DNA of 64,000 nucleotides from Bdellovibrionales bacterium (GTDB taxonomy: Bacteria > Bdellovibrionota > Bdellovibrionia > Bdellovibrionales > UBA1609): positions 6,018 to 70,017 of the forward strand of contig JBFWQY010000026.1 of the NCBI GenBank assembly GCA_050249195.1, read 5' to 3'. The notes beneath the pieces are model-generated. The model worked only from the letters and a program-made list of their open reading frames with translations. It was not told where the DNA came from and did no database searches. A program made the translations under genes and the position numbers. Positions 19,814 through 22,232 of the stretch are shown piece by piece. Numbering within the stretch: position 1 is the stretch's first letter; each line of letters starts with the position of its first letter.

Positions 19814-20920
19814 TTATTGTCTTTCGGGAAGAGCAGAGCCATTTGCCGGAGTGCCAGAAGAGCCTCCACTGCCGCCCTTAGTTGTGACGCAGTAATGGCT
19901 GACCGCCCCTATAATGGCGTCCCGTTTTTTCGCCTGAGGATCGCTCTCACGGAGAGGCCCGAAGTAGCGAGCCATGCCGTGGGATTCCTTGCCGCTGCCT
20001 CCACCCACGGACTGATCTTCGGCAATCAGCTTCATGGCAATGCAGGCACCGCATTTGATGTTGGTTTTAGCGTCGAGGATGGTGGTTTCGTTCAACTCCG
20101 CGCAGTCAGGGTCTTTGGACTTATCGTCGACTCCAATCTGGAACAAGCCTTTCCCGCCCATGGGCCGGCCCGTGGCTGGATCTCGCCAGGGTTTTTCTTT
20201 CGCTTTCGCATTCCAGCCGGATTCTTGTGTGATCAGCGCGGCCAATAATTGTTCGAACACCAGCACGCGTTGCGGACCGCGTTCGAACTGCGAATACGTC
20301 GGGCAGAAGCGATTGAAATCACGGATGGGCTTGCCCTCATCTTGCATTTTGAAAATGCGTTGGAGTTCCTGACTCGCGCACGATTTTCCATCGGTCAGGA
20401 TGTCTTTGAGTAAATCGCAATACTTTTGGTTGACCTGTGTTCGGTCCACGTTCTGGCCCGTACACAGCCCGTTACCAATGTTGCCCGAGCCTTCCCCACC
20501 GGAGTTAAAGTCGTAGTCTTTAGGGAATTCGTATTTATCCCAATTGACCTCATTCCAATTCGTCGTCTCCGAGGGACCTTTCTTTTTGTTACCATTGGCG
20601 GGCTTTTTATCTACGTCTCGGTTCCACGCCTTCGGGTCTGTCGGGCTACCGCCGCCCGCGCCCGACAGCATTTCTGGCAGTTTCGAAATCATGTCTTTCA
20701 TGGGGTCAGCCTTATTTTGTTCTTGCTCGGCCAGTGTTTTCGGAGTTTCAACCGCGGGAATGGTCACGGGCGCCACGGGAGTCGATGGCGTTTCCGTTGT
20801 GTCGTCTGCCAGGGGCGTGATTTTCTGCGGAGGTTTTGGTGCAAGAACCTGAGGCTTCATGGTCTGAGCAAAACTGGTCCCAAGCGCCATCGCAAGAGAA
20901 GTAAATGTGATCAGAAGCAT
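19814..20920 (-). CDS. Secreted lytic transglycosylase (SLT-like) domain protein
   Basis: Signal peptide, Pro/Thr-rich linker, catalytic LITQESGWN, GLFQIG, NIKCG motifs. Confidence 0.75.
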   Translation of the reverse strand: MLLITFTSLAMALGTSFAQTMKPQVLAPKPPQKITPLADDTTETPSTPVAPVTIPAVETPKTLAEQEQNKADPMKDMISKLPEMLSGAGGGSPTDPKAWNRDVDKKPANGNKKKGPSETTNWNEVNWDKYEFPKDYDFNSGGEGSGNIGNGLCTGQNVDRTQVNQKYCDLLKDILTDGKSCASQELQRIFKMQDEGKPIRDFNRFCPTYSQFERGPQRVLVFEQLLAALITQESGWNAKAKEKPWRDPATGRPMGGKGLFQIGVDDKSKDPDCAELNETTILDAKTNIKCGACIAMKLIAEDQSVGGGSGKESHGMARYFGPLRESDPQAKKRDAIIGAVSHYCVTTKGGSGGSSGTPANGSALPERQ

Positions 20921-21013
20921 GTCTCAAATTGTCGCATGCTGGAGGCAGCCGGGTAAGAGACTGGACCTGCGAACTGGCTCAAAACCCTGTAAATCCCAAG
21001 CCAGTTGCTAACC

Positions 21014-21028
21014 GTCTCAAAATGAGAG
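21014..21028. promoter_or_regulatory. Palindromic operator-like site GTCTCA-N3-TGAGA
   Basis: GTCTCAAAATGAGAG; related copies at 14411-14425 and 33530-33544, half sites at 20921 and 60531. Confidence 0.4.
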
Positions 21029-21060
21029 AGGTGCCGAGACCCTGGACCGCGCCCACAGAG

Positions 21061-21088
21061 GTGACACTTAGCCCTGGTTAAACATAAT
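21061..21088 (+). promoter_or_regulatory. sigma70-like promoter firing antisense to the 43-aa small ORF
   Basis: GTGACA-16 nt-CATAAT (5/6 match in each box). Confidence 0.45.
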
Positions 21089-21199
21089 CAGGTAAGCCCA
21101 GCAAAGTAACAGCTTATGGATGAAAAGAATCAACCAGAACTGGACTTTAAAGAGTTCCACCTGAACCCGAAACGATGAAAAGGTTTTGCTTTTCATCAT
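21068..21199 (-). CDS. 43-aa small hydrophobic protein, candidate type I toxin
   Basis: MMKSKTFSSFRVQVELFKVQFWLILFIHKLLLCWAYLIMFNQG; SD AAAGGAGGT just upstream, paired with CTCCT in a stem (21203-21226). Confidence 0.6.
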   Translation of the reverse strand: MMKSKTFSSFRVQVELFKVQFWLILFIHKLLLCWAYLIMFNQG

Positions 21200-21271
21200 A
21201 TCGACCTCCTTTCTGTGAGGAGAGTCTTCCAAAAGCTCCAGGGCCTCGGCTCCTGGAGCTTTTGCATTTTT
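21095..21271 (+). ncRNA. Predicted antisense RNA (candidate type I antitoxin)
   Basis: Bounded by the promoter at 21061-21088 and the terminator at 21231-21271; complementary to most of the small ORF and its SD. Ends are approximate. Confidence 0.35.
21231..21271 (+). terminator. Intrinsic terminator (possibly bidirectional)
   Basis: AAAAGCTCCAGG(21231-21242)/CCTGGAGCTTTT(21252-21263) perfect 12-bp IR followed by GCATTTTT. Confidence 0.7.
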
Positions 21272-21370
21272 AGGGCTACGGTGGGACGTGTTTAGAGTCG
21301 AGGGAAGGTAGGGGGCGAGTCGGCCCTCGGATAGTCGGAACGGGCGGATCGGCGGCAAGTGAACTCGCCT

Positions 21371-21904
21371 TTAGGCTCGCGCCGCCGACTTGAGTTGGTC
21401 TTGCGTGAACAGGCTCTTGAGTTCAAGTCCGGCCTGGCGCAGATTCTCTTCACCGCCTTGCTGGCGTGAAATCACGCATAAAACATCGCGAATCCGCGCG
21501 CCTTCTTTGCGAAGATCTTCGGCGCTGAGCACGACTTGCCCGCCCGTGGTGACAACATCTTCAATGATACACACCCTTTTATCGCGGAGCGATTCCAGTC
21601 CTTCAGCCACGCGACAGGTACCGTAGGATTTTGCTTTCTTGCGTACAAACACAGCCGGTAGGCCTGTCTCCAGAGACAGAGCCGTTGCGACCGGTATGCC
21701 TCCCATCTCGAGCCCGGCCAGGACCTCGGTTCCTTCGGGAATGAGCTGTTTCATTTCCGCCGCAATCGCGCGCAAGAGATGCGGTTGAGCTTCGAAGCGA
21801 TACTTATCAAAATACTCGTTTGAGGTGAGGCCAGAGCGAAGTTTGAACTCTCCTTTGAGATGAGCGATGTTGAAGATGGACTGCGCCAGTTCAGTGGGAC
21901 TCAA
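21371..21904 (-). CDS. pyrE: Orotate phosphoribosyltransferase
   Basis: GEFKLRSGLTSNEYFDK, AGLEMGGIP, VRKKAKSYGT, PRPP motif IIEDVVTTGG; TTG start after AAGGAGG. Confidence 0.92.
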   Translation of the reverse strand: MSPTELAQSIFNIAHLKGEFKLRSGLTSNEYFDKYRFEAQPHLLRAIAAEMKQLIPEGTEVLAGLEMGGIPVATALSLETGLPAVFVRKKAKSYGTCRVAEGLESLRDKRVCIIEDVVTTGGQVVLSAEDLRKEGARIRDVLCVISRQQGGEENLRQAGLELKSLFTQDQLKSAARA

Positions 21905-22133: not shown

Positions 22134-22232
22134 ATGGAAAAGATGAACGCGCGAACAATTTATGTGATTCTCCTTATCTTGACCCTGTTGATGGTGCTGG
22201 CGGGCAGGACTCTCCTGCAACAACCGGTTTAA
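22134..22232 (+). CDS. 32-aa single-TM small protein (not on the ORF track)
   Basis: MEKMNARTIYVILLILTLLMVLAGRTLLQQPV; purine-rich AGGAGGAAGGA upstream; downstream of the sigma54 motif. Confidence 0.55.
   Translation: MEKMNARTIYVILLILTLLMVLAGRTLLQQPV

Follow-up and report, generated by a model that had tools for sequence, protein, structure and literature searches.

The hok mRNA folds back so that its 5′ and 3′ ends pair, and Sok has an unpaired 5′ tail. In the AapA/IsoA system of Helicobacter pylori, as described in the parts of the literature drawn on here, the antisense RNA lies wholly inside the mRNA and overlaps the start of the ORF, its promoter can be mutated without a change of peptide and hence lies within the ORF, and an mRNA of ~250 nt blocks translation by its own folding, with several chromosomal copies of which some are dead (PMC5416894, PMC8594479). 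The Bdellovibrionales locus presented here, known from sequence prediction, most closely resembles AapA/IsoA in layout, including the position of the antisense promoter, without sequence kinship, as searches of Pfam and of PDB sequences with the family gave no match. The IsoA1 promoter reads TATAAT and is described as constitutive, whereas the antisense promoter predicted here is FliA-type and that of the mRNA sigma-54-type; IsoA uses two kissing loops where the predicted antisense RNA here has an unpaired 5′ tail, and the AapA peptide has 30 aa compared with 33–45 aa across the family described below (PMC5416894, PMC8594479). Likeness to Hok/Sok lies in the 5′–3′ long-distance pairing, a likely activation by 3′ processing and a single-stranded 5′ antisense seed, but Sok lies 5′ of the toxin ORF (PMC8594479), whereas the predicted RNA here overlaps it, and the family here has no plasmid or phage match. 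The Ibs/Sib, TisB/IstR-1 and DinQ/AgrB systems share with it short helical membrane peptides; however, Sib covers the whole ORF and the antisense RNA predicted here only the start region, while IstR-1 and AgrB do not overlap their mRNAs and tisB is controlled by LexA (PMC8594479, PMC8309996).

Within the portions of these sources considered, membrane type I toxins are described only in Proteobacteria and Firmicutes in a 2021 review (PMC8309996), and for Bdellovibrio bacteriovorus HD100 no type I locus is given in a survey of 2010, in which Bd3114 (54 aa) is a candidate row (PMC2887945). FliA and RpoN do not occur in the available part of PMC11951105, and searches of the open-access literature, as far as its texts were accessible, turned up no description of a type I system from Bdellovibrio and none of an antitoxin driven by sigma-28.

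In the window (the whole stretch of DNA analyzed, 64,000 nt), the putative toxin is encoded on the minus strand at 21068–21199, an assignment based on its family, predicted helix and dN/dS. A sequence-only reading of this DNA had pointed to a 43-aa ORF at 21199–21068 with a basic N-terminus and a hydrophobic C-terminal half, and its coordinates, charge and hydropathy were confirmed (net charge +4; best 19-residue hydropathy window 1.99, from residue 22). AlphaFold predicts a single helix spanning residues 4–42 with a pLDDT of 84, and the window peptide has the size and shape of type I toxins (20–60 aa, hydrophobic, helical). That reading had also recognized no known family in the peptide, which agrees with scans of 20, 98 and 40 members against Pfam, NCBIfam and PHROG that returned no match. 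None of the known type I toxins in Pfam matched at E 0.1, and neither family HMMs nor antitoxin covariance models for Hok, Ibs, Ldr/Fst, TisB, TxpA and other catalogued toxins matched. PDB sequences gave no match to the family, the best Rfam hit (E 0.9) was far below the gathering score, and Foldseek found no match, which is uninformative for a single helix. Atlas gave nothing for the window peptide and, for a member of the short clade, faint leads to the TisB (0.83) and DinQ (0.79) clusters, below the level that the tool rates as reliable. Phages and plasmids yielded no family member by tblastn with single queries, none was present among 68 viral pattern matches, and 10 of 10 peptides from genus g35 were missing from a collection of 15 billion proteins.

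By homology, the locus in the window belongs to a peptide gene family of Bdellovibrionales that is scattered and multi-copy, with as many as 12 members in one genome. The window peptide as a single query found homologues in 11 of 17 congeners, a 20-row HMMER profile reached 107 representatives at 50% identity, and a 98-row profile (A3) matched 33 of 383 genomes of the order (assigned as Bdellovibrionales from record titles), with 0–12 copies each. With A3 the family was not found in 5 of the 17 congeners, and many of the absent genomes are complete. A word-indexed protein search returned the query alone, which must represent a limit of sensitivity because HMMER gave 107 representatives; a DNA search of 41 relatives found short pieces of the ORF in 2 genomes and nothing more. 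Records bearing members are titled Bdellovibrionales or Pseudobdellovibrionaceae, with one Oligoflexales, and several are identical to copies in congeners; a member-like copy is present in a genome of another order (L066). Profile iteration reached a short clade of cationic, amphipathic peptides of ~33 aa (median charge +5, moment 0.58), whose own profile matched 31 of 181 genomes of family f10 and 29 of the 44 genomes of genus g35, the other 15, many of them complete, giving no match. A phylum-wide search with the same clade matched 37 of 401 genomes, all inside the order. The long clade, to which the window peptide belongs, aligns with the short clade at 97% probability, the two being separated by a rough criterion under which at least L256 is misplaced. 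Codon comparisons show purifying selection on the peptide: for the 16 codons that follow the promoter region, 37 disjoint pairs give a dN/dS of 0.20, and pN/pS in the peptide frame is 0.26, the lowest of six frames. The counts that follow mostly concern a main set of 125 distinct copies, four junk rows having been dropped, and should not be taken as independent events because the copies are kin. Five of the 125 (L079, L105, L106, L109 and L112) were found solely by a DNA pattern that contains the motif discussed next.

From which promoter would an antisense RNA arise? Across the family, the strand opposite the ORF carries YTTAA-N16-CCGATA within the ORF, and in the window this predicted FliA (sigma-28) promoter reads TTTAA at 21146–21150, 16 nt, and CCGAAA at 21167–21172 on the plus strand. 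In B. bacteriovorus, the part of the study by Karunker et al. used here gives TTAAG-N16-CCGATA as the FliA consensus at 92 of 140 attack-phase promoters and includes mapped promoters of the form TTTAA-16-CCGATA (Bd0688) and CTTAA-16-CCGAAA (Bd2109; Table S2), so that the likeness to the HD100 attack-phase regulon lies in both promoter form and spacing (PMC3627812). Of the eight sRNAs that it lists for the attack phase, three have FliA promoters; those sRNAs are intergenic, whereas the antisense RNA here would arise inside a peptide gene, and in the same portion of the paper the word “toxin” is absent and no antisense RNA within a peptide gene is reported (PMC3627812).

The rationale for a promoter within the coding sequence comes from the codons. 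The most conserved residues of the peptide, Y-R and, seven codons on, F-K, are those that encode YTTAA-N16-CCGATA on the opposite strand. Among the first 39 anchored copies (40 were kept of 44 after four weak matches were dropped, and one was unanchored), the Tyr was TAT in 35 of 35 and the Arg CGG in 32 of 39, counted before any DNA pattern was searched for, against genome-wide usage of 0.50 for TAT and 0.20 for CGG. In the 125 copies the motif Tyr is TAT in 95 of 95 compared with 57 of 86 elsewhere in the same ORFs, and the motif Arg is CGG in 104 of 121 compared with 17 of 157. At the −35-like box, a fixed 16 nt away, Phe is TTT in 56 copies and TTC in 2, compared with 105 and 58 elsewhere. 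Synonymous codons are thus locked to the motif, and selection therefore acts on the DNA. An exact −10 is present in 82 of the 125 copies, or 77 of 120 without the five found by pattern; 99 of the 125 have both boxes with no more than one mismatch (3 of 122 controls), and most copies have a purine at +9. Another 24 copies, obtained solely with a protein profile, served as a held-out set. In it the CGA core is present in 20 of 20 anchored copies and a −35 with at most one mismatch in 18; the −10 is more drifted, lying within one mismatch of CCGATA in 6 and within two in 13 of the 20.

The window genome (4.94 Mb, 53% GC) carries fliA together with boxes of this kind, namely a TTAAG-like −35, 16 nt and a CCGATA-like −10. 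Upstream of genes in this genome, the motif is most frequent at the spacing expected (19 sense versus 7), but only 1 of its 7 flagellin genes has a FliA box within 300 nt. Presence of the module could not be tied to fliA because all 83 good genomes of the taxonomic family carry that gene.

An alternative hypothesis is that no antisense RNA is made, and that TATCGG and the nearby codons are kept by pairing within the mRNA, where CGA lies between SD and AUG, with control by folding alone. The hexamer is indeed often paired in the mRNA (0.55–0.86), so structure may add to its conservation, and a CGA in the spacer of 47 of the 125 copies pairs the hexamer at 0.8–0.86. However, the 78 copies that have no such CGA still use TAT for the Tyr in 60 of 60, 65 of them keep the box to within one mismatch, and neither the constant 16 nt to the −35-like box with its TTT preference nor the clustering of opposite-strand terminators at 79–117 nt fits folding alone, which we consider quite improbable.

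These terminators bring us back to the antisense RNA itself. The sequence-only reading had placed a hairpin with a U-tract here, and a 14-pair hairpin is present at 21230–21264, forming with its U-tract an intrinsic-terminator-like element at 21230–21271 (plus strand) with counterparts in homologues: by a permissive rule, a terminator-like hairpin lies 60–122 nt past the predicted start in 93 of 116 full-flank copies, against 42 of 116 controls. The antisense RNA is predicted to span 21181–21271 (plus strand, ~90 nt), its start being placed by the distance of 8–9 nt between box and start in Table S2 of the available part of PMC3627812. It would consist of an unpaired 5′ tail, an SD-complementary hairpin and the terminator, with a fold z of −5.1 and 22 unpaired nucleotides at the 5′ end that are complementary to the start codon and first codons. 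The antisense promoter is thus predicted to be the FliA-type box inside the ORF, giving an RNA of ~90 nt over the start codon and SD.

The same reading had instead proposed a promoter GTGACA-16-CATAAT and an antisense RNA of ~175 nt over the ORF and SD; as a sigma-70 promoter, this box would drive a constitutive RNA across the whole ORF as in Ibs/Sib. The box exists at 21061–21088 (plus strand) and matches the consensus at 10 of 12 positions, the window’s FliA −10 is the CCGAAA variant, so that a local gain of a second promoter is possible, and boxes of at least 9/12 occur near the stop codon in 10 of 122 copies against 2 of 122 controls. It is nevertheless the only such site in 20500–21900, where shuffles average 0.5, and therefore not beyond chance; the other nine boxes differ in the −35 and mostly have AATAAT-like −10 elements from AT-rich ORF sequence, only 3 copies have 10/12 boxes, and no sequence is shared. 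The box is local to the window copy and lacks family conservation. For this reason the sigma-70 promoter is probably wrong, the longer RNA gives way to the ~90-nt RNA from the conserved FliA-type box, and we regard the sigma-70 version as very improbable.

On the minus strand, the mRNA for the peptide is predicted to be ~225 nt long (21029–21252) with its two ends zipped together, the ends being taken from the fold, from sigma-54 spacing and from the 3′ arm. The 5′ arm of this long-distance helix lies at 21237–21250 and the 3′ arm, followed by an unpaired ACC, at 21033–21046, both defined by covarying pairing. A fold of 21252–21020 shows the closed ends, a hairpin at the SD and another at the start codon, with z at −5.6; the wider region 20950–21371 gives −4.5 against shuffles. 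The SD, AAAGGAGGT at 21212–21204, is complementary to the genome’s own 16S anti-SD and, as had been claimed for the stem at 21203–21226, is paired within a predicted sequestering hairpin there, with a pairing probability of 0.94 in the window copy. The adjacent hairpin (21172–21199) would close the start codon and first codons, with an AUG pairing probability of 0.98. Strong SDs are nearly family-wide (a run of at least 7 in 112 of 125 copies); their pairing across the family is modest, with a mean of 0.76 against a background of 0.66 and values above 0.8 in 36 of 85, and pairing of the AUG equals background (0.65).

The pairing of the two ends recurs among copies. Cognate arms pair at −23.0 kcal/mol and non-cognate arms at −14.8 kcal/mol (−23.6 versus −14.1 in 22 held-out copies), the cognate arm is the best of nine in 69 of 109 copies where about 12 are expected by chance, and the preference is seen only at offsets of 11–21 from the conserved box. 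This motif-anchored test was used because a whole-region duplex test was noisy (43 of 116 copies beat all 25 controls), and a count of closed ends in 92 of 93 copies was left unused as circular, the ends having been chosen by the arm. Predicted mRNA lengths are 163–322 nt in 93 of 109 copies, inside the 150–400 nt expected of type I toxin mRNAs with paired ends. Non-Watson-Crick positions in 77 arms comprise 76 G-U and 17 A-C, and the pairing therefore takes place on the mRNA strand, which rules out terminal inverted repeats of a DNA element. A hairpin that the sequence-only reading had placed downstream of the ORF is real (~20969–21008) and lies past the predicted 3′ end of the mRNA, but it is no part of the module, a strong hairpin being present there in 8 of 77 copies.

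Several recurrent sequences were observed in the untranslated regions. Predicted 3′ ends commonly read GCAC(C/T) directly after the 5′–3′ helix (window 21029–21036, minus strand), these being the commonest ends in the family, and some short-clade ends read GCACCA, reminiscent of a tRNA acceptor end and possibly a processing signal. In long-clade copies GGGCTAA or GGGCTTA recurs at or past the stop codon (window 21046–21074, minus strand), and TCTGTGGG recurs in the 5′ or 3′ UTR beside the long helix.

What would drive this mRNA? A WTGCA box lies 35–100 nt before the start codon in 97 of 116 copies (background, 11 of 116), and the 5′ arm starts where a sigma-54 transcription start would fall. 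On the basis of WTGCA conservation, a sigma-54-type promoter is predicted at 21263–21277 (minus strand), with a −12 ATGCA at 21267–21263 and, at −24, AG rather than GG at 21277–21276. The spacing GG-N10-GC is present in 38 of 45 short-clade copies and in 17 of the 24 held-out copies (control, 0), whereas among 62 long-clade copies the −24 GG lies at mixed distances, namely 8 (15 copies), 9 (16), 10 (8) and 11 (10). The window copy, which reads AG-N10-GC, is unusual in joining a long-clade peptide to a short-clade 5′ layout with AG replacing GG. Because of the mixed long-clade spacing and this AG, sigma-54 is well supported for the short clade only. The window genome has rpoN, and the GG-N10-GC motif peaks upstream of its genes. 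A reading of WTGCA as a sigma-70 −35 was ruled out by eye, as no −10 follows it. Sigma-54-type sites are numerous in this genome, with 56 strict TGGC-N7-TTGC sites upstream of genes of at least 200 aa versus 29 on the other strand, and many precede genes with signal-peptide-like starts.

By its distribution, the module is accessory and dispersed: it occupies a variable site and has the tandem and broken copies of a selfish-module pattern. At 15 congeneric pyrE loci neither the module nor the SLT gene was found within about 1.5 kb (0 of 15 for each), and in 8 of the 15 a methyltransferase gene lies at most about 700 nt from pyrE. The SLT-domain gene of the window (19814–20920, minus strand; Pfam E 1e-4) is lineage-specific at this variable site, like the module. 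Between pyrE and cutA the window also holds a 32-aa hydrophobic ORF with a strong SD (22134–22232, plus strand) of a different family, and L289 has a similar peptide at that place. A copy of the short clade is located at a comparable position near the contig start, about 11–13 kb of C1, in each of five g35 genomes that are complete or near-complete (G107, G428, G284, G246 and G163). Among broken copies, L105 has an insertion with an inverted-repeat look, L312 an internal deletion, and L046, L030, L106, L012 and L016 truncations or frameshifts, some of which may be assembly errors. For an organism A, the contigs of four RNA runs tell neither strand nor ends. The module is covered in full by one of them, X2, which has about 120 bases missing from L312, a distant relative’s copy and not that of the window, so organism A has an undeleted copy; three of the four runs had no contig over the 5′ part of the module and are uninformative. 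The one paralogue in the window genome (L035, C2:160010–160135) has an intact ORF and FliA-like box but neither a WTGCA box nor an antisense terminator; its 5′ region contains a second, outward-pointing TTAAG-16-CCGATA and may be rearranged.

Such decay raises the question of whether the window copy is itself silent or decaying, its hairpin serving mainly as a two-way terminator behind pyrE. Its −24 reads AG and not GG, broken members are common in the family, and the paralogue at C2:160010 is without the WTGCA box and terminator. However, the ORF, SD, both arms, FliA box and terminator of the window copy are all intact, homologues carry the hairpin whatever lies upstream, and a canonical −24 is generally missing in the long clade. 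We regard a silent or decaying copy as very improbable; given the AG in its −24 box, transcription of the window copy may be weak.

In its small helical peptide and the paired ends of its predicted mRNA, the family has features of the type I toxin-antitoxin class; it belongs to no catalogued family tested, and likely represents a new type I toxin-antitoxin family. The earlier proposal of a type I system thus stands as a new toxin-antitoxin-like family with a putative cis-antisense RNA (from homologues, selection, terminators and 5′–3′ pairing), its antisense promoter and RNA length being replaced; the 5′–3′ arm, the start-codon hairpin and the sigma-54-type promoter had been missed. On balance, we think it probable that the locus is a toxin-antitoxin module of AapA/IsoA-like design, with a sigma-54-type promoter for the mRNA and a FliA antisense promoter within the ORF. 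In such a module, toxin mRNA made from the sigma-54-type promoter would fold into a stable, closed and poorly translated form, which 3′ trimming or refolding might open, as the analogy of hok and aapA1 suggests. The antisense RNA of 90 nt would seed on the start-codon region through its unpaired 5′ tail and block translation, leading to RNase III cleavage. From data on B. bacteriovorus, this RNA would be supplied only during the flagellar or attack programme. When FliA activity stops, through prey entry, failed flagellar assembly or a shut-off of transcription, the short antisense RNA would decay, leaving stored mRNA free for translation, and the resulting peptide would enter the inner membrane and arrest or kill the cell.

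The limitation of antisense supply to the attack phase is proposed because FliA is active there and its anti-sigma factor FlgM is high in the growth phase. In the portion of the B. bacteriovorus data used (Table S1 of PMC3627812), attack/growth RPKM values are 990/104 for fliA, 92/1344 for flgM and 169/271 for rpoN, with the column order read from the flagellin rows; fliA is thus ~ten times higher in attack phase and flgM ~fifteen times higher in growth phase (PMC3627812). Should rpoN be active in growth phase with FliA off, each cycle would bring production of a lethal toxin, unless the activator of sigma-54 is phase-limited too. The same RNA architecture might serve a phase-timed, non-lethal membrane peptide, made from the sigma-54 promoter in growth phase and switched off by the FliA antisense RNA in attack phase, and proposed to modulate a membrane protein, permeabilize the prey remnant or aid exit. 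The presence of rpoN transcripts in both phases, with FliA opposed by FlgM in growth phase, fits routine growth-phase expression. The cationic, amphipathic nature of short-clade peptides also speaks for such a role, as does one g35 copy that lies at about 12 kb, a comparable position, in five genomes. Against this, the family's occurrence is patchy and variable (5 of 17 congeners and 15 of 44 g35 genomes gave no match), its copies are dispersed, tandem or broken, and in the accounts of hok and aapA considered here a closed 5′–3′ mRNA with an antisense RNA locks a harmful product (PMC5416894, PMC8594479). We consider a non-lethal role unlikely.

Returning to the toxin-antitoxin reading, we tentatively hypothesize, as a bolder proposal that may well prove wrong, an order-wide family wired across the flagellar cascade, with the toxin under sigma-54 and the antitoxin under sigma-28; its role would be that of a checkpoint in the life cycle or of an addiction device, killing or arresting a predator whose FliA programme stops while toxin mRNA is stored. 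If true, this would be a large new family largely missed by annotation, in which an antitoxin is tied to a developmental sigma factor and the silencing of a peptide is coupled to the attack (hunting) phase. It would bear on open questions in predators, which include the switch from attack to growth, the death of starved attack-phase cells and the origin of host-independent mutants, in Bdellovibrio-like organisms that are studied as living antibiotics.
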